26,283 bases of DNA from an uncultured Desulfurellaceae bacterium (GTDB lineage Bacteria > Campylobacterota_A > Desulfurellia > Desulfurellales > Hippeaceae), in NCBI GenBank assembly GCA_913056505.1, contig CAJXLZ010000001.1:1-26283 (forward strand). The letters run 5' to 3'. Below, in pieces: positions 4,614 through 26,283 of this stretch (the stretch's first letter is position 1; the number at the start of each line of letters is the position of its first letter). Position numbers and translations under genes: made by a program. Below the pieces are notes generated by a model. That model searched no databases and was not told the origin of the DNA. It saw only the letters and a list, made by a program, of their open reading frames with translations.

Positions 4614-4901
4614 ATGCCTATATACGAGTATGAATGTTCATACTGTTCTCACAAATTCCAACAGTTGCAGCGTGTTGGTGATAAAACGCCTGAGGTATGT
4701 CCTAATTGCGGAAAGAAGGGCGGCGTGCACAAGCTTATATCTCATACTTCGTTTGTTTTGAAGGGCTCGGGGTGGTATGTTACAGATTATAAAAACAGCA
4801 AGAACAGCGCATCAAGCAGTGAGAAAAATAAAACGAATACGGCATCTAAAAAGAACAACAGTATTCAAACTAAATCAAAGGCAGCGGGAGGCAGTAAATG
4901 A
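4614..4901 (+). CDS. FmdB-family zinc-ribbon protein
   Basis: [11 protein letters not shown]...CPNCG plus [13 protein letters not shown], followed by a low-complexity K/S/N-rich tail. Confidence 0.9.
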
Positions 4902-5314
4902 TTGAAAGAACACTATCTTTAATAAAGCCAGATTGCGTTAGTGCAAAAAATGCAGGAAAGGTTATAGACATACTTGAGAAGAATGGCTTTTTAATAGTAG
5001 GTATGAAGAAAATAAAACTGAGTAAAGAGGCAGCAGAAGGATTTTATGCCGTGCATAAGGACAGACCATTTTTTAAATCATTGACAGATTTTATGTCAGA
5101 AGGTCCTATTGTAGCGATGGTTCTTGAGAAGGAAAACGCCATAACGGATTACAGAGCATTAATGGGTGAAACAGATTCAACAAAAGCAAAGGAAGGAACC
5201 TTGCGTGCGCAATTTGGCACAGACATTGAGCGTAACGCTGTGCATGGTTCAGATAGTCCTGATACGGCAAAGTTTGAGATAGGTTATTTTTTTAGTGAAT
5301 TGGAATTAGTTTAA
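4898..5314 (+). CDS. ndk: Nucleoside diphosphate kinase
   Basis: [29 protein letters not shown] and catalytic NAVHGSDS; ATGA overlap with the upstream gene. Confidence 0.97.
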
Positions 5315-5339
5315 ATATAAATATTAAAAGGAGTTTAAG

Positions 5340-5519
5340 ATGGCATTACCTAAAAGAAAATCTTCACATTCAAGGGCAGCAAAAAGGGCTACTCACAAAA
5401 AGGCAAGTGGATTCGGTTTATCTAAGTGCCCCAATTGCGGTGAGCCTAAACTGCCACATAGAATTTGTCCAACATGTGGATACTATAAAGATAGAGAGGT
5501 TATTAAGATAGAGGAATAA
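5340..5519 (+). CDS. rpmF: 50S ribosomal protein L32, Zn-binding 4-Cys form; not in the ORF track
   Basis: Manual translation gives MALPKRKSSHSRAAKRATHKKASGFGLSKCPNCGEPKLPHRICPTCGYYKDREVIKIEE* (59 aa). AAGGAG at 5328-5333; canonical position before plsX. Confidence 0.97.
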   Translation: MALPKRKSSHSRAAKRATHKKASGFGLSKCPNCGEPKLPHRICPTCGYYKDREVIKIEE

Positions 5520-5525
5520 GATAAT

Positions 5526-6560
5526 ATGAGCAGCAGCCGTGTGGCAGTCGATGTATATGGGGGCGATTATGCGCCTACAGAAATAATTAAAGGTGCTATG
5601 AGTGCTGTATCATCAAATGACAAACTTAATATTGTGCTTATTGGGAATGAGTACAAAATATTAAAGGAGCTGTCTAAATTTGATTATGATGCAAGCAGAG
5701 TAAGCATAATAAATGCTACAGAAGCTGTGGGTATGTCCGATAAGCCTACAATTGCCCTGAGAAAAAAGAATTCTTCTATGATGGTAGGTGCTAAATTGGT
5801 AAAAAACAGTGAAGCGGATGCCTTTATTACCGCCGGTAACTCAGGGGCTGCGATGGTAATATCTATGTTTATATTGGGCAAAATCAAAGGCATAGGCAGA
5901 CCTGCTATTGCAACCATTCTGCCAACATTAAAGGGATATGTATTGCTAATAGATGCCGGTGCAAATGTTGACTGCAAGGTTGTAAATTTGGTGGAATTTG
6001 CGCTTATGGGCAGTGTTTATGCCAAATATATAATGAACATAGATAAACCAAAGGTGGGTTTGTTAAGCAATGGTGAAGAGCCTGGCAAGGGCAATCATCT
6101 CACTTTAAAAACATATGATGTTTTATCATTAAGCAAATTAAATTTTATAGGAAATATTGAGGGTAACAGTATATATAAAGGCAAAGCGGATGTTGTCATT
6201 TGTGATGGTTTTGTAGGTAACATTGTGTTGAAAACAAGTGAATCCATACCAGGCATAATAAGTGAATTTTTAAAAATTGAAATTAAAAAAAGCATTTGGT
6301 ATAAGATAGGCTTTTTGCTTGCTAAGCCTGCATTTAGATTATTAAAGAGAAAAATAGATTATGCTGAAATCGGCGGAGCACCGCTTTTGGGTATAAATGG
6401 CGCTTGCATAATAAGCCACGGTAGAAGCAAGGCAAAGGCTATTAAGAATGCAATTTTAAAAGCGTCTAAATTTTCGGAACTAAAAATTAATGATAAAATA
6501 CAATTGGCTGTTGAGCATTGCAGAGTGCTTGCAAATTTAAGAAAGGTGGAGAATGTATGA
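5526..6560 (+). CDS. plsX: Phosphate acyltransferase PlsX
   Basis: VAVDVYGGDYAP, AGNSGA, RPAIA, LIDAGANVD, LLSNGEEPGKG, FIGNIEG, DGFVGNIVLK, GGAPLLG and SHGRS. Confidence 0.96.
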   Translation: MSSSRVAVDVYGGDYAPTEIIKGAMSAVSSNDKLNIVLIGNEYKILKELSKFDYDASRVSIINATEAVGMSDKPTIALRKKNSSMMVGAKLVKNSEADAFITAGNSGAAMVISMFILGKIKGIGRPAIATILPTLKGYVLLIDAGANVDCKVVNLVEFALMGSVYAKYIMNIDKPKVGLLSNGEEPGKGNHLTLKTYDVLSLSKLNFIGNIEGNSIYKGKADVVICDGFVGNIVLKTSESIPGIISEFLKIEIKKSIWYKIGFLLAKPAFRLLKRKIDYAEIGGAPLLGINGACIISHGRSKAKAIKNAILKASKFSELKINDKIQLAVEHCRVLANLRKVENV

Positions 6561-7534
6561 ATGCTAAGATAATATCTACGGGTTCTTACCTACCGGAAAA
6601 GATTTTAACCAATAGTGATCTGGAAAAGATGGTAGATACTAATAACGAATGGATAGTGCAGAGAACAGGTATAAAGGTCAGGCATATTGCCGATGGCGAA
6701 TCTACATCTGATTTAGCTTATAAAGCGGCGTTGGATGCAATAAATAAAATACATTTGGATCCTCTTGACATTGATTTAATAATATTAGCAACAGTCACAC
6801 CGGATATGCCTCTGCCCGCAACAGCACTTTTTGTTCAGGAAAAATTAGGCGCGAAAAATGCTTTTTGTTTTGATATTAATGCTGCCTGCAGTGGGTTTAT
6901 GTATAGTTTGAGCATCGCTAATGCATACATAAAATCCGGTACGGTGAAAAAGGCTTTGATTATAGGCGCAGAAGAATTAAGCAAAATTACCGATTGGACG
7001 GACAGGTCTACATGTGTTATATTTGGAGACGGCGCTGCATGCGTTGTTTTAGAGGCGACGGATGATGAAAACAGGGGCATATTGGATATAAGGCTTAAAT
7101 CCGATGGAGCATATACAAACTTAATGAGAGTTCCTGCCCCGGGCTCTATTAAACAATGTTCCGAAGAGGTTATAAAAAACCGCGAAATATATATAAAAAT
7201 GCTGGGTAATGAAACATTTAAAATGTCTGTGAGACATATAGCAAGTATAAGTGAAGAATCCTTAGAGAGTGTAGGTTTAAATTTTAGTGATGTTGACTGT
7301 ATGGTTTGTCATCAAGCTAATAAGAGGATCATAGATGCGGTTGTCAGGAGAATTAAGATTCCTGCAGAAAACGCTGTTATTACCGTAGATCGCCATGGCA
7401 ATACGGCTGCGGCATCGATTCCGCTTGCTTTGGATTGGGCTAATAAAAATGGAAAAATTAAAGAAGATGATATATTATTGCTAAACAGTTTTGGTGCCAG
7501 TTTAACCTGGGCCGCTAGCGTTATTAGATGGTAG
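6557..7534 (+). CDS. fabH: 3-oxoacyl-ACP synthase III
   Basis: Cys-His-Asn triad (AACSGF, CHQANKR, HGNTAAAS), DWTDRSTCVIFGDGA and FGASLTW. Start is ATG 6557 (GGAG RBS, ATGA overlap with plsX), not 6518. Confidence 0.96.
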   Translation: MNAKIISTGSYLPEKILTNSDLEKMVDTNNEWIVQRTGIKVRHIADGESTSDLAYKAALDAINKIHLDPLDIDLIILATVTPDMPLPATALFVQEKLGAKNAFCFDINAACSGFMYSLSIANAYIKSGTVKKALIIGAEELSKITDWTDRSTCVIFGDGAACVVLEATDDENRGILDIRLKSDGAYTNLMRVPAPGSIKQCSEEVIKNREIYIKMLGNETFKMSVRHIASISEESLESVGLNFSDVDCMVCHQANKRIIDAVVRRIKIPAENAVITVDRHGNTAAASIPLALDWANKNGKIKEDDILLLNSFGASLTWAASVIRW

Positions 7535-7542
7535 GAGAAGTT

Positions 7543-8496
7543 ATGCTGAAAACGAAGATTTGTGATCTGCTGAATATAAAATATCCCATAATTCAAGGTG
7601 GTATGGCGTGGGTGGCAGATGCCCAGCTTGCATCCAGTGTATCCGAAGCGGGTGCTTTGGGTATTATAGCTGCGGGTAACGCACCTGCAGAAGTTGTAGA
7701 GAACGAGATTCTAAAGGCAAAAAGTATGACCGACAAACCGTTCGGCGTAAATGTAATGCTTTTGTCCCCTTTTGTGGATAAAGTGGTTGATGTTGTAGTA
7801 AAACATAAGATACCTGTCATCACGACAGGGGCCGGAAATCCCGGCAAATATATGGATAAATTCAAATCTGTAGATGCAAAAGTGATACCTGTCGTACCGT
7901 CTGTTGCACTGGCAAAACGTATGGAACATATTGGAGCAGATGTTGTTATTGCAGAGGGTATGGAATCTGGCGGACATGTAGGTGAGTTAACAACCATGTC
8001 TATGGTACCACAGATTGTTGATGCTGTTACGATTCCAGTGGTTGCAGCTGGCGGTATTGCAGATGGAAGGGGATTTGTGGCTGCTTTAAGTTTGGGCGCA
8101 CAGGGCGTTCAGATGGGCACACGTTTTGTGGCTTCAACAGAGTGTACCGCCGCAGAGATTTATAAAGAATATATTAAAAGAGCAAAAGATAGAGACACAA
8201 TTGTGACAGGTAGAACCACGGGGCATCCCGTAAGAGTCTTAAAGAATAAGTTCACAAGAGAATTGATTAAAATGGAAGAGATGGGTGCTACAAAAGAAGA
8301 GATTGAAAAATTTGGAGAAGGTAGACTAAGACTTGCGGTTAAAGAGGGCGATATGCTTATGGGCAGTGTAATGGCAGGTCAAATTGCAGGATTAATACAT
8401 GATATAAAACCTGTTAAAGATATAATGTCGGATATAATGAATGAAGCAGAGAGTACTTTGAGAAATATGTGTATGCAGATAGGTGAGTTTAAGTGA
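7543..8496 (+). CDS. fabK: FMN-dependent enoyl-ACP reductase FabK
   Basis: PIIQGGMAWV, PFGVNVM, TTGAGNP, GMESGGHVG, GVQMGTRF and MAGQIAGL; located inside the fab cluster. Probable start ATG 7543 after AGGAG (7533-7537). Confidence 0.88.
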   Translation: MLKTKICDLLNIKYPIIQGGMAWVADAQLASSVSEAGALGIIAAGNAPAEVVENEILKAKSMTDKPFGVNVMLLSPFVDKVVDVVVKHKIPVITTGAGNPGKYMDKFKSVDAKVIPVVPSVALAKRMEHIGADVVIAEGMESGGHVGELTTMSMVPQIVDAVTIPVVAAGGIADGRGFVAALSLGAQGVQMGTRFVASTECTAAEIYKEYIKRAKDRDTIVTGRTTGHPVRVLKNKFTRELIKMEEMGATKEEIEKFGEGRLRLAVKEGDMLMGSVMAGQIAGLIHDIKPVKDIMSDIMNEAESTLRNMCMQIGEFK

Positions 8497-15787: not shown

Positions 15788-16155
15788 AAAGTTATACTAC
15801 TAAGGTTTATTACGATGACACAGATGCGGCAGGTGTTATGTATTATGCCAATTATCTAAAGTTGTGTGAGCGCGCAAAACAAGAATTTTTTCTTATGAAA
15901 AATTGTGATCTGTTTAAATTGCATAATGAAGGTATATATCTTGTTGTTAAAGATGTGCATATATCATATGTCAAAAGCATACAATTAGGTGAGACGGTAG
16001 ATGTATATGTTGATGTAATAAAAAGAAAGAATGCAAGCATTTTATTACATTTCGATATTAAAGTTGAAAATGATACAAGGGCGCGCGTTGACATATTAAG
16101 TGCAAGTATAGACAAAAATGCGAAAATATTGAAATTGCCGGAGTGTGTTAAGTAG
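15784..16155 (+). CDS. YbgC/4HBT-family hot-dog-fold acyl-CoA thioesterase
   Basis: VYYDDTDAAGVMYYANYLKLCERA matches the YbgC-type motif; ATGA overlap with pgi; no tol-pal genes adjacent. Confidence 0.85.
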   Translation: MKSYTTKVYYDDTDAAGVMYYANYLKLCERAKQEFFLMKNCDLFKLHNEGIYLVVKDVHISYVKSIQLGETVDVYVDVIKRKNASILLHFDIKVENDTRARVDILSASIDKNAKILKLPECVK

Positions 16156-16267
16156 CATTTAAACAGAAACCCTGATTGTCTTTAGCAATAATTGGGATGA
16201 GTGTTCATAAAGTCTTTACAGTCTATTGGCAAATCTCATCTTTACACCAAGCAAAAAGAAATGTTTT

Positions 16268-16383
16268 CTTTTGTCATTCCCGTGAAAACGGGAATCCAGA
16301 GTTTAGAATCCAGACTCCATCCTTTGGATTCCGCATCAGGTGCGGAATGACAGTGGGATAGCACGGAATGACAAAAGGACAGT
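16268..16383. repeat. REP/REPIN-like palindromic element, locus 1
   Basis: TGTC-ATTCCCGT-GAAA-ACGGGAAT (16272-16295), five heptamers, ATTCCGCA-TCAGG-TGCGGAAT-GACA (16328-16352), then an extra half-arm GCACGGAATGACAAAAGGACAG. Perfect 13-bp outer inverted repeat at 16268-16280 and 16365-16377. Confidence 0.9.
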
Positions 16384-16473
16384 ATTGATAACAAAGGAAG
16401 TGGGAAATTTTAATATCCAACAATTTTTGTTCCATAATTACAATAAATATAGTGATCTCGGACATATGTTTTA

Positions 16474-16501
16474 TTGACACAGGTATTTTTTTATATAGAA
16501 T
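16474..16501 (+). promoter_or_regulatory. Putative sigma70 promoter for ilvD and downstream genes
   Basis: TTGACA (16474-16479), 16-nt spacer, TAGAAT (16496-16501); AGGGGG RBS-like element at 16524-16529. Confidence 0.55.
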
Positions 16502-22038: not shown

Positions 22039-23445
22039 ATGAGAAAAATAAATAATTCCATATTCAGGGAGTATGACATACGAGGTATTTGGCAACAAAA
22101 TATTGATGAACAATTCAGTTTTGATCTGGGCAGGGCGTTTGCAAAATATATAAAAAAATATAGTAAGAAGGATAAGCTAACCATTAGCGTAGGATACGAT
22201 GCAAGATTATCTTCAAAGGATATATTTAGCTCGCTTGCAAAGGGATTAAATTATGAAAATATAGGAGTTATAAATTTAGGGCTTGTCGCAACGCCTGTTC
22301 AATATTTTTCACTATTCAATATGGCAGTAGATGGCGGCGTTATGATAACGGCATCGCACAATCCTAAAGAGTATAATGGATTTAAGCTGAGTTTTGATAA
22401 GGAAACACTTTTTGGGGATAAAATACAGGAAGTTAAGGACATAATGGAAAGCTTGGGTGATGTTGATTACGGTAAAGATGTAAAAAGAGAAGTTGTTGAT
22501 TATAATATTATAAAAGATTATACGGCTTATATGCTCAATGAATTTGGTTATTTGAAACAGTATAAAGATAAACCACCTATTGTGCTTGATGCCGGGAACG
22601 GCTGTGGCGGATTCATAGCTGAACCTATACTAAATAAATTGTCGTTTTTTGTTAAGGGACTGTTTATTGAACCGGATGGCACTTTTCCTAATCATCATCC
22701 TGATCCTACAGTTTTGGGAAATATAGAGGATATGAGAAAAACTGTTGTTGAGGGTAACTACGAGGTAGGTATAGGGTATGATGGCGATGCAGATAGAATC
22801 GGGGTTGTTTTAAAGGATGGCACACTTTTATATGGTGATCAGCTGTTGCTCCTGTTTGCTCAGGATATACTGCGAAAGCATAAGGGCGCAAAGATAATAG
22901 GCGAAGTAAAATGCTCGCAGGTTTTATTTGACGGAGTGCAGAAAGCAGGGGGTAAACCCATAATGTGGAAGGCTGGGCATTCGCTTATAAAGGCAAAAAT
23001 GAAAGATGAAAATGCGCTACTTTCAGGTGAAATGAGCGGACATATATTTTTTAAAGATAGATACTTCGGCTATGATGATGCCATATATGCATCACTCCGA
23101 CTACTTGAAATTATGACGGTTGAAAAGATTGATATTTTAGATTGGAGGAATCGGTTACCGAAAATGTTTAATACGCCTGAGATGCGCATCAGTTGTCCCG
23201 ATAGAAAGAAAGATACAGTTGTGCGGCATATAATCGAATATTGCAAACAGGATAAAGATATTATTGATATTAATACAATAGATGGCGTTAGGTTTAATGT
23301 TGAGGGCGGATGGGGACTTGTCAGAAAGAGCAATACTCAACCTGCAATTGTTTTAAGATTTGAAGCAAACACAAATGAACTATTGGATGATCTATCAGAA
23401 AAATTTATTAGCCTAGTCAAAAAAGAGATTAACAATCAAAAGTAA
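22039..23445 (+). CDS. Phosphomannomutase/phosphoglucomutase (AlgC-like)
   Basis: FREYDIRG, ITASHNP, PNHHPDP, DGDADR, SGEMSGH, YDDAIYA, GWGLVRKSNTQP and LRFEA. Confidence 0.93.
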   Translation: MRKINNSIFREYDIRGIWQQNIDEQFSFDLGRAFAKYIKKYSKKDKLTISVGYDARLSSKDIFSSLAKGLNYENIGVINLGLVATPVQYFSLFNMAVDGGVMITASHNPKEYNGFKLSFDKETLFGDKIQEVKDIMESLGDVDYGKDVKREVVDYNIIKDYTAYMLNEFGYLKQYKDKPPIVLDAGNGCGGFIAEPILNKLSFFVKGLFIEPDGTFPNHHPDPTVLGNIEDMRKTVVEGNYEVGIGYDGDADRIGVVLKDGTLLYGDQLLLLFAQDILRKHKGAKIIGEVKCSQVLFDGVQKAGGKPIMWKAGHSLIKAKMKDENALLSGEMSGHIFFKDRYFGYDDAIYASLRLLEIMTVEKIDILDWRNRLPKMFNTPEMRISCPDRKKDTVVRHIIEYCKQDKDIIDINTIDGVRFNVEGGWGLVRKSNTQPAIVLRFEANTNELLDDLSEKFISLVKKEINNQK

Positions 23446-23452
23446 TAATTTA

Positions 23453-23665
23453 TTATTCCGCATTTTTTCTTGTCATTCTCACAAACGCTCAGAATCCAGA
23501 GTCCAGATTCCGTGTCAAGCACGGAATGACAAGAGGACAACGTAATAAGTAGAATGGAATGACAGAGTGCGGTGCGGAATAACAATGGAGAAAATGTCAT
23601 TCCCGCGTATGCGGAATCCAGATTCTATAATCCAGATTCCGCATTAAGCACAAAATGACAGAGTG
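23453..23665. repeat. REP/REPIN-like array, locus 2 (two doublets plus half-arms) between convergent genes
   Basis: Doublet 23471-23531 (2 heptamers; perfect 11-bp outer IR TCTTGTCATTC 23468-23478 / GAATGACAAGA 23524-23534). Doublet 23595-23660 (3 heptamers). Orphan arms GGAATGACAGAGTG and TGCGGAATAACA. Confidence 0.9.
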
Positions 23666-23684
23666 GTGGCGGTGTTGTTATGTG

Positions 23685-24974
23685 CTATATTAGGATGTTT
23701 GGGCTTAATGATAGAAGTATTTCCAATAAACCTATTAAAAATCCCAATACAGCTCCGAAAAAATTTATATACCTGAATTGATCTTTACTTATGTTCAGCA
23801 CAACATCCTCTACTTCGGATATGTCCAATGCGCTTAGTTTTTCCCTCGCAAGCTTTTCTATATCAAAATTAAAGATTTTATCACTCTCTTTTTTAACAAC
23901 ATAAATCAGATTATTGACAATTATAGACGGCAATTTCTTATATATATCCGGTTTAAATGCATTAATTAGATCGAACATCGTATACTTATTCAGCAACAGC
24001 CTTATGTATGCTGTGATTTCAAAAGATATTTTGTAATTGTCCAGTGTATTTATTATATTATCTATGATTTTTCCCTTAATGTCAGTTTTTTTAAGCAGTA
24101 ACTCTGCTTTATCTGCGATTAAAGCCTGCAGCTGCTCCATATTTTTTATGTCTAATATTTTTAATAATTCCTCCGGTTTTTTATCCAATATTTTTTCTTT
24201 AATAGATATAAATATGGCGTTTTTTGTTTTATCTATAACGACAGGATTAATGAGAATATTTTTTATCTCAAAAATAATGGCATCCGTTATTTTTTTGTTA
24301 TCCTCAAAAAGTGGTGATGCCATAGAAATTAGCGAGGCTAAAAGTATATTGGAGTCGTCGGCGTATTTGTCCATAGCGGATTTTATTGTATTATTTATTA
24401 ACGTCCTCATTTCCTGCGAATCAAAATCATTTGATAGTTTATAGAGGGCCGTTTTTGAAAATTCATCGCTTGCACTTTTAATGTTATCTATCTGACTTTT
24501 ATTTAAATAAGAAATTACATCTTTATCTTTATCAACTAAATCAAAAACAGAATGTACGATATACTTAAAATCTATTTTAAATTTCTCTTTTACTATACTA
24601 CTTAGATTTTCATCCAATATTTTTCTGATTAGATTTTCTAATTTTTTATAGTCTATGTTGAAAGATGATAGTTTTCTTGCTAAAATCGTATTTAGGATTT
24701 TATCTGCAAATTCGTATAGAAACAACCTGTTCTTTTTTTTATAGATATGCTTTATTATCTCTTTCTTATCTACAATTTTGTTTGATATGGTGTATGAAAT
24801 TTTATCTATTATATATTTTCTTTTTTTAGGTATAAGACCTGGCGTAAAAGGAATTTTAAAACCGAATAAGTAATAGGGGTTCTTCGGTAAAAAAAGCATC
24901 TTTATGGCTATGTAGTTTGTTACATAGCCTATAAGGGCACCAATAATTGGCAAAAATAATATTTCTATGCTCAT
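23685..24974 (-). CDS. DUF445 (YheB-like) membrane-anchored protein
   Basis: N-terminal [21 protein letters not shown]...PFTPGLIPK and C-terminal [33 protein letters not shown], with a helical soluble middle region. Confidence 0.88.
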
Positions 24975-26077
24975 TTAAATATGTTTTTAAATTTACCTAT
25001 AATAGAATCTTTATACGTTAATTCTTCGCCCGATTCCTTGGCGAATTCTTCAAGTATCTCTCTTTGCCTTTGAGTTATTGTGGTAGGTATTTTTACATTT
25101 ATTATCACTATTTGATCTCCGCGGGTACCAGATAACTCAACACCTTTGCCTTTCATAATAAATTTACGATTATTTTGTGTTCCGGGTGGTATGGATAGTT
25201 CTTCCTCACCCCATATTGTTGGTACTTTGATAGTTGCGCCCAACGTAGCTTGCGTAATTGATATAGGAAGCTCTAAAATTATATTTTTCCCATCTCTTTT
25301 AAACAGGTCACTTTCTCTAACGGAAATATATATGTATAGGTCGCCATTTGGCCCGCCATTGCGTCCTTCGTAACCCCTATTCGACACCTTTATAATATTT
25401 CCATTATCTATACCTGGAGGTATTTTAATCTTTAGTTTTTCCTTTTCATATATGTATCCGCTACCTGAGCACCTTTTGCATGTTTTCGTTATAATCTTGC
25501 CGCTGCCTGAACAATGTTGGCACGTTTTCCTAACGGAGAAAAAACCTTGTGAATACTCAACCTCACCTCTTCCTTTGCAGTATGGGCATGTTTGTATACC
25601 ACCTTTTTCTGCACCTGTTCCATTGCAGTTGGGACATATTTTTCTATTTTTTATCTCTATCTCTTTTTCTGCCCCGAATACAGCTTCTTTAAAATCGATT
25701 GTTAAATTAAGCCGTACATCTTCCCCTTTTTGAGGTCTTTTCCTCCTATTTCTTCTTGATTGAAAGTCTCCAAATATATCCCCAAAGACGCTGGAAAATG
25801 TGTCAAATATATCTTCAGCCGTAGCTGATTCAAAGCCTTCAAATCCTGAAAATCCGCCCATATCACCAACGCTTCCGAATTGATCATACTGGGCTCTTTT
25901 TGATTCATCCGATAAAACAGAGTATGCTTCGTTAATTTTTTTAAATTTTTCTTCTGCTTTTTTGTCACCGGGATTTCTATCGGGATGATATTTAATAGCT
26001 AATTTTCTGTATGCTTTTTTTATCTCTTCTTGGGTTGCATCCCTGTTCACGCCTAATATATCATAATAATCGTTCAT
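24971..26077 (-). CDS. dnaJ: Chaperone DnaJ, class A
   Basis: J-domain with HPD, G/F-rich linker, four CxxCxGxG repeats ([32 protein letters not shown]) and a C-terminal domain. Confidence 0.97.
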
Positions 26078-26126
26078 TCATATACCTATCTATATACAAG
26101 CAAAAAAACAGACATAGATTTGATCA

Positions 26127-26278
26127 ATTAACAATCAAAAGTGCCAATTTGTCATTTTTTGCTTTTTTGTCATTTCCACGAACGCTCAGAATCCAGATTC
26201 CAAATCCCAGACTCCAAATTCCGCATCAAGTAATGTCACCCCGTGCTTGACACGGGGGGCGGAATGACAAGAGGACAG
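26127..26278. repeat. REP/REPIN-like element, locus 3, with nested hairpin; may continue past the window end
   Basis: TGTCATTTCCACGAACGCTCAGAATCCAG (26168-26196), four heptamers, ATTCCGCATCAAGT-[27 bp]-GCGGAATGACAAGAGGACAG; its flank matches locus 2. Confidence 0.9.
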
Positions 26279-26283
26279 TGTGA

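Follow-up and report, generated by a model that had tools for sequence, protein, structure and literature searches.

The locus at 16272-16352 is one copy of an intergenic, non-coding, head-to-head heterodimer of TGTC(CGTC)-tagged REP hairpins, and the linker joining its two hairpins consists of tandem 7-nt units. Across the metagenome-assembled genome (MAG) that carries it, linker length is quantised in steps of 7 nt, a property largely restricted to one lineage, a small AT-rich phylum that includes MAGs deposited as Desulfurellaceae. The heptamer-quantised linker appears to be new to the literature, and the repeat system itself is known. We lean modestly towards a reading in which known REP hairpins form the heterodimer, the tandem 7-nt units of its linker are altered by slippage or unequal exchange, and whole doublets are copied. 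We infer the slippage mechanism and also the agent by which the doublets spread in this genome.

Doublet architecture and identity of the arms

The window is the whole stretch of DNA that was analysed, 26,283 nt in length. Each of the four doublets in it reads, from 5' to 3', as an outward-facing TGTC tag, hairpin arm A, a spacer, hairpin arm B on the opposite strand and the complementary tag. The first-pass annotation had reported four spacers of 35, 14, 21 and 28 nt in this stretch, and all were recovered at exactly the positions it gave. The features are as follows.

16272..16294, plus strand: arm A of doublet 1, with a TGTC tag, a stem starting AT, a short loop and a 3' foot; fits the published degenerate SRM motif and folds
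16295..16329, plus strand: spacer of doublet 1, 35 nt, five 7-nt units (n=5) with consensus T-Y-Y-A-G-A-N
16330..16352, minus strand: arm B of doublet 1, a TGTC-tagged hairpin, CGTC-2-like in its dimensions (8-bp stem, 5-nt loop)
16361..16373, plus strand: half-arm made of the loop edge, 3' stem and tag without the 5' stem, 21 nt past the arm B tag
23471..23531, plus strand: doublet 2, with arm A as the non-folding GCTCAGAA variant, a 14-nt spacer at 23495-23508 (n=2) and an intact arm B
23595..23660, plus strand: doublet 3, with arm A lacking one G, a 21-nt spacer at 23617-23637 (n=3) and a degenerate arm B
26168..26269, plus strand: doublet 4, with arm A as the GCTCAGAA variant, a 28-nt spacer at 26192-26219 (n=4) and a hairpin nested in arm B

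The family to which these arms belong has been described twice. Di Nocera et al. 2013 (PMC3733652) defined CGTC-tagged REPs, in which the tag may be CGTC, TGTC or CCTC, stems of 8-9 bp start with AT, loops are 4-5 nt long and a 3-nt tail is close to CCA. Head-to-head dimers with the tags outside predominate, no transposase is associated with them, and the CGTC-1 family corresponds to Neisseria dRS3 and Rickettsia RPE-6. Chenal et al. 2025 (PMC11893778) extended dRS3 to the 28-nt NTS, which SsnA, a 94-aa GIY-YIG nuclease with a typically motif-flanked gene, binds along with related motifs (SRM) as single-stranded DNA and cuts just upstream.

The doublets match the first description in that both arms carry TGTC and have an 8-bp stem, the loop is 4 nt long in arm A and 5 nt long in arm B, arm A bears a CCA tail, and the tags point outward in 39 A-B doublets. 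The published CGTC-1/CGTC-2 dimers (PMC3733652) share the TGTC tag variant, the AT-starting 8-bp stem, the 4- or 5-nt loop and the CCA tail, as well as the outward tags, the heterodimeric make-up, the intergenic position, the high copy number and the failure to find a dedicated transposase. NTS and SRM were scored by the definitions of PMC11893778. Sixteen copies of arm A fit the NTS consensus with at most one mismatch and 33 fit the SRM motif, against 0-3 in five shuffled genomes; the one mismatch of arm A to the NTS consensus is at its first base, and the C that follows the palindrome is present. A search of the genome with the SRM expression placed arm B outside that motif. Judged by sequence, arm A is an NTS/SRM hairpin, of the type recognised by Ssn GIY-YIG single-strand DNA nucleases; in doublet 1 it is classed as an NTS/SRM-type, CGTC-1-like hairpin. 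Arm B, on the opposite strand, is a relative with a stem of 8 bp and a loop of 5 nt. The annotation had assigned the arms to the CGTC-tagged and dRS3-like family, and the NTS/SRM matches and the CGTC description bear out that assignment. No Rfam family was matched at gathering score in the window.

Several further repeat forms accompany the doublets. In the GCTCAGAA variant of arm A (23480-23494 and 26177-26191) the 7-nt 3' half of the stem is swapped for a unit-like heptamer, so that it cannot fold; the variant has multiplied all the same, to 14 copies in the genome. A third TGTC-tagged hairpin, with a ACCCCGTG stem and the 5-nt loop of arm B, lies inverted within arm B at 26232-26258, and this nested module has 11-14 copies genome-wide, on contigs including C24, C31, C45, C63, C90, C117 and C153. 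Such insertion of a repeat into a repeat suggests that the hairpins act as targets for insertion in their own right. Arrays of half-arms (3' stem and tag, no 5' stem) in the same orientation stand beside doublets at 16361-16373, 23553-23563, C18:30-96 and C186:1900-2033; genome-wide, the spacing of successive half-arm tags in the same orientation peaks at 21 nt, or three heptamers (14 cases). A 16-nt word lies 5' of doublets 2 and 4 in identical form (23428-23443 and 26127-26142), the sole two copies in the assembly, and its first copy forms the last codons and stop of a pgm/pmm gene whose same-genus homologue ends otherwise.

Spacer quantisation and its distribution

The assembly (1.1 Mb in 187 contigs, 35% G+C, 78% complete) was parsed with a regular expression, which returned the 39 A-B doublets genome-wide. 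Their spacers measure 14 nt in 8 copies, 21 nt in 10, 28 nt in 3, 35 nt in 5, 42 nt in 2, 22 nt in 2, 36 nt in 8 and 37 nt in 1. The annotation had claimed that the spacer grows in 7-nt steps, to be judged by a genome-wide histogram of length modulo 7, and that histogram upholds it: length is 0 mod 7 in 28/39 doublets (n=2-6; binomial p about 7e-16). Ten more are 1 mod 7, and each of these is a heptameric array with one recognisable 8-mer. When moduli 5 to 9 were tried, only 7 concentrated the lengths in this way. Within spacers, base identity reaches 0.54 at a lag of 7 and 0.56 at a lag of 14, and lies at 0.10-0.27 at other lags. These statistics, together with anchor-free listings, rule out chance or a parsing artefact. 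An assembly artefact is unlikely, as an independent JGI assembly of different DNA carries the same arrays. The idea of a palindromic spacer was likewise ruled out, since the arrays are direct rather than inverted repeats in which the last unit usually repeats the first.

To place the quantised spacer among bacteria, prokaryotic genomes, one per species, were scanned for an exact pattern, and the scan gave at least 117 stretches with at least 118 doublets. The stretches listed came from Nitrospirota, Planctomycetota, Bacteroidota, Chloroflexota, Patescibacteria, Cloacimonadota, Caldisericaceae, Pseudomonadota and others; with so many phyla among the matches listed, the A-B doublet is pan-bacterial. 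In the 118 doublets listed, spacers were mostly 20-26 nt long with a flat mod-7 distribution, and they usually had short complementary ends and a lineage-specific centre. Spacers of 7 or 14 nt occurred, among the matches listed, in three records, deposited as Desulfurellaceae (genome G029), WOR-3 and Bdellovibrionales. The last of these suggests that the n=1 form, at least, also occurs outside the phylum.

Of the 37 species in the phylum of the window, five or six carry the arms, namely this MAG, the genomes G033, G029 and G035 of another family, and members of a third family (G034 and G036). G029 matches a record deposited as a Desulfurellaceae MAG at 100% identity, and the group is probably Desulfurellia-like. 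The arms were not found in the 27 other genomes of the window's own order, in which fragmented assemblies can hide repeats. Among the 38 doublets of G033, n is 1 in 11, 2 in 25 and 3 in 1, with one 26-nt exception. In G029, n is 1 in four doublets and 2 in two, and the one doublet of G035 has n=1. The spacers of G034 are 13, 18 and 20 nt long. Seven low-GC contigs from the JGI metagenome Ga0114934 carry spacers of 21, 35, 21, 21, 36, 21 and 36 nt, and the repeats are the only DNA these contigs have in common with this MAG; high-GC JGI contigs with the same spacer ends do not follow the 7-nt rule.

The composition of the units is uneven. T1, A4 and A6 are each kept in 37/39 internal units, and positions 2, 3, 5 and 7 vary, the variation at positions 2 and 3 being almost solely C versus T. 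The near-invariance of the three positions suggests selection on the unit or its recurrent regeneration, rather than neutral decay. It could reflect a functional array, in which the units give a protein or an RNA-binding factor a periodic binding platform or a ruler for spacing, and n is selected for hairpin distance or phase. Gain and loss in whole units only, and the conservation of a 36-nt subfamily between this MAG and the unrelated metagenome, would also agree with such a role. However, n ranges freely from 1 to 6 with no favoured value over copies and genomes, a period of 7 bp does not keep phase with the DNA helix, the same doublet works elsewhere with the unrelated 20-26-nt spacers described above, and no candidate protein was identified. 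We therefore regard selection for such a function as unlikely to account for the steps.

Genomic context, turnover and the origin of the 7-nt steps

Intergenic DNA houses 38 of the 39 doublets, and 24 of the 39 lie within 400 nt of a contig end, a sign that the repeats fragment short-read assemblies. Summed contig depth in run X1 (16150-16499, 23500-23849, 25950-26283) was 4800-8100 in repeat bins versus 80-270 in unique flanks. In this one run, taken as Logan contigs, repeat bins reach 40-60 times the depth of their flanks, which indicates that the family is far commoner in the sample than 39 assembled doublets suggest. No 7-nt indels were seen at doublets in the Logan contigs of one run, a form of data in which rare alleles are invisible.

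At the pgm-DUF445 site the same-genus genome G001 has 105 nt without repeats and this MAG has 242 nt with two doublets, and the intergenic DNA cannot be aligned; at the thioesterase-ilvD site, G001 has a 100-N scaffold gap. Neither site compared with G001 yielded an alignable empty site for the doublets, whose outer tags form an inverted repeat. Most of the repeat-cluster structure has been remodelled between G029 and G033, whose flanks are 96-97% identical. One orthologous locus, with 96% identical flanks and a shared right flank, has n=2 in G029 and n=1 in G033. Arm B differs there by a nested hairpin, and the left flank differs too, so that replacement by another copy is as likely as slippage at this locus.

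We propose that the steps may arise at the hairpin feet. The 7-nt unit resembles the final three bases of the NTS stem joined to its four-base tail. At n=1 a single tail serves both feet, and the junction already reads as a pair of imperfect 7-nt direct repeats. Whole units could then be added or removed at this foot microhomology by replication slippage or unequal exchange, with stalling at the flanking hairpins favouring gain and loss. The doublets would subsequently be copied as wholes, because spacer subfamilies recur, and C-to-T drift may convert TCC units to TTT units. The arrays of G033, which are near-perfect tandem copies, fit the slippage account.

The same arrays bear on a different origin, namely that the units are scars of former multi-hairpin clusters, in which decayed or deleted internal hairpins left their feet about 7 nt apart without true tandem duplication. 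Internal units often read as a hairpin foot plus tail, half-arm clusters are common, and in 14 copies the 7-nt 3' stem half of arm A has been replaced by a unit-like heptamer, all of which such decay could leave behind. Deletion, however, would not yield exact multiples of 7 in 28/39 copies, the near-perfect tandem units of G033 are not expected, and the spacers of the 39 doublets contain no partial-hairpin intermediates. This origin is the least probable of those considered here.

Slippage in its simplest form also meets a difficulty within this MAG. When pairs of doublets with identical arms were compared, they differed by a single clean gap of 7, 14 or 21 nt, and the inserted units were frequently unlike both neighbours. 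Adjacent units show 2.10 differences in 6 positions versus 1.65 for non-adjacent units, so that neighbours are less alike, because TCC and TTT units alternate. The dissimilarity of neighbours, the unlike inserted units and the three near-invariant positions indicate that recent slippage by single units cannot by itself explain the arrays. Older events followed by C-to-T drift, exchange among copies, selection acting on the unit or enzyme-made duplication may each have contributed.

The clean gaps invite a further explanation, in which each insertion or excision at the doublet centre leaves a footprint through a 7-nt staggered cut with fill-in or a retained target duplication, and n counts such events. 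Increments in exact multiples of 7 between otherwise identical arms would be expected from it, as would the fast turnover of clusters between genomes with 96-97% identical flanks, and hairpins of this family do serve as insertion targets, as in the hairpin nested in arm B and a doublet inside an ssn gene. On the other hand, a footprint should duplicate the neighbouring unit, yet many inserted units differ from both neighbours; no element was caught within any spacer; the published Ssn cut falls upstream of the tag and outside the tail (PMC11893778); and no transposase is linked to the arms in this MAG. On this evidence a footprint origin is quite unlikely. Very unlikely, in our estimation, is that the machinery that copies or processes the hairpin pairs writes the heptamer count directly, with each event adding a single 7-nt unit at the tail that the two feet share.

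Candidate mobilising genes and relation to known systems

The annotation had regarded the repeats as a candidate undescribed mobile-repeat system, to be sought through a RAYT or GIY-YIG gene flanked by the arms. That view is not supported, as the hairpins, the tag-outward dimer and the cognate Ssn GIY-YIG single-stranded DNA nucleases were already published. The assembled 1.1 Mb contains no arm-flanked RAYT or GIY-YIG gene. An ssn gene was not found in this MAG by regular-expression, single-protein or profile searches of an assembly that is 78% complete and breaks at repeats. The sole GIY-YIG ORF encodes 604 aa and is presumably UvrC. A RAYT-like Y1 transposase gene at C138:2675-3482 (L001:1468-2274), scoring 80.5 bits to NF047646 against a cut-off of 80, has a long C-terminal extension, runs off the contig end and adjoins an integrase-type transposase gene. 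It was ruled out as the mobiliser, as its contig carries no TGTC arms. An IS110 on C147 was also discarded, there being no arms near it.

In other phyla the doublet is found close to genes of the ssn type. An A-B doublet adjoins or flanks small ssn-type GIY-YIG genes in L026, L050 and L104, and in a Gammaproteobacteria MAG (L046:7707-7967) an A-B doublet inside such a gene truncates the reading frame. With an ssn-type gene beside, between or under the repeats at these four listed loci, the doublet is tied to the Ssn system elsewhere. Within the phylum, G034 has an ssn remnant 120 nt from a doublet. The corresponding stretch (L153:1430-1982, contig C102 of G034) holds a different TGTC-tagged repeat with a ATTGCGAG-type stem, the C-terminal ssn remnant, and then half-arms and the A-B doublet, so that two hairpin families coexist there. 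Small GIY-YIG ORFs in G029 and G033 were rejected as candidates because no arms flank them; of the two, one looks truncated and one scores below the Pfam cut-off. A strong ssn homologue (E 1e-36) is present in a 100% complete genome of the same order (G021:C1:36394-36669, L149). This genome has none of the arms searched for, and its cognate motif may therefore differ.

Comparison with described systems delimits what is new. The published spacers of CGTC dimers (PMC3733652) are 20-100 bp long, conserved or variable and sometimes with complementary ends; in contrast to the arrays described here, tandem 7-nt units or quantised lengths are not reported there, and the five phyla listed exclude that of this host. 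With the Neisseria NTS/dRS3-SsnA system (PMC11893778), the family shares an arm A that fits NTS and SRM, and like doublets flank ssn genes in other phyla. It differs in that no ssn was found in this MAG and arm B is outside SRM, and the paper is without dimers or spacers. The annotation's view that a spacer with 7-nt steps is unrecorded has stood, with no description in PMC3733652, PMC11893778 or a full-text literature search.

Three other repeat classes are similar in outline. REPINs (Bertels and Rainey 2011, PMC3116915) likewise comprise two inverted hairpin repeats and a spacer copied as a unit, fall into subfamilies within a genome and are mostly intergenic; however, their REPs are GTAG-tagged and flank a single RAYT gene, whereas here the tag is TGTC and the C138 RAYT-like gene is without arms. 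E. coli BIMEs (see PMC2817692) have clustered, alternating REPs with linkers of a few discrete lengths, but these linkers are distinct named motifs and not tandem heptamers. Heptanucleotide microsatellites, or simple-sequence contingency repeats, are also made of head-to-tail 7-nt units that vary in number by whole steps. Unlike them, the units described here are degenerate, form short arrays (1-6) and are confined between two hairpins, and the documented variation lies between paralogous copies and, in one case, between species rather than alleles.

The spread of CGTC/NTS hairpin repeats is unexplained because no transposase has been linked to them; the Ssn nuclease cuts near these repeats and has not been shown to move them. 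A linker whose length shifts only by whole 7-nt units, between n=1 and n=6, is a simple and countable read-out of events at the hairpin foot. It may show how CGTC/NTS repeats change and could separate slippage from enzyme-made duplications. If the count were written by the copying machinery itself, the arrays would be a readable record of how CGTC/NTS-type repeats propagate.
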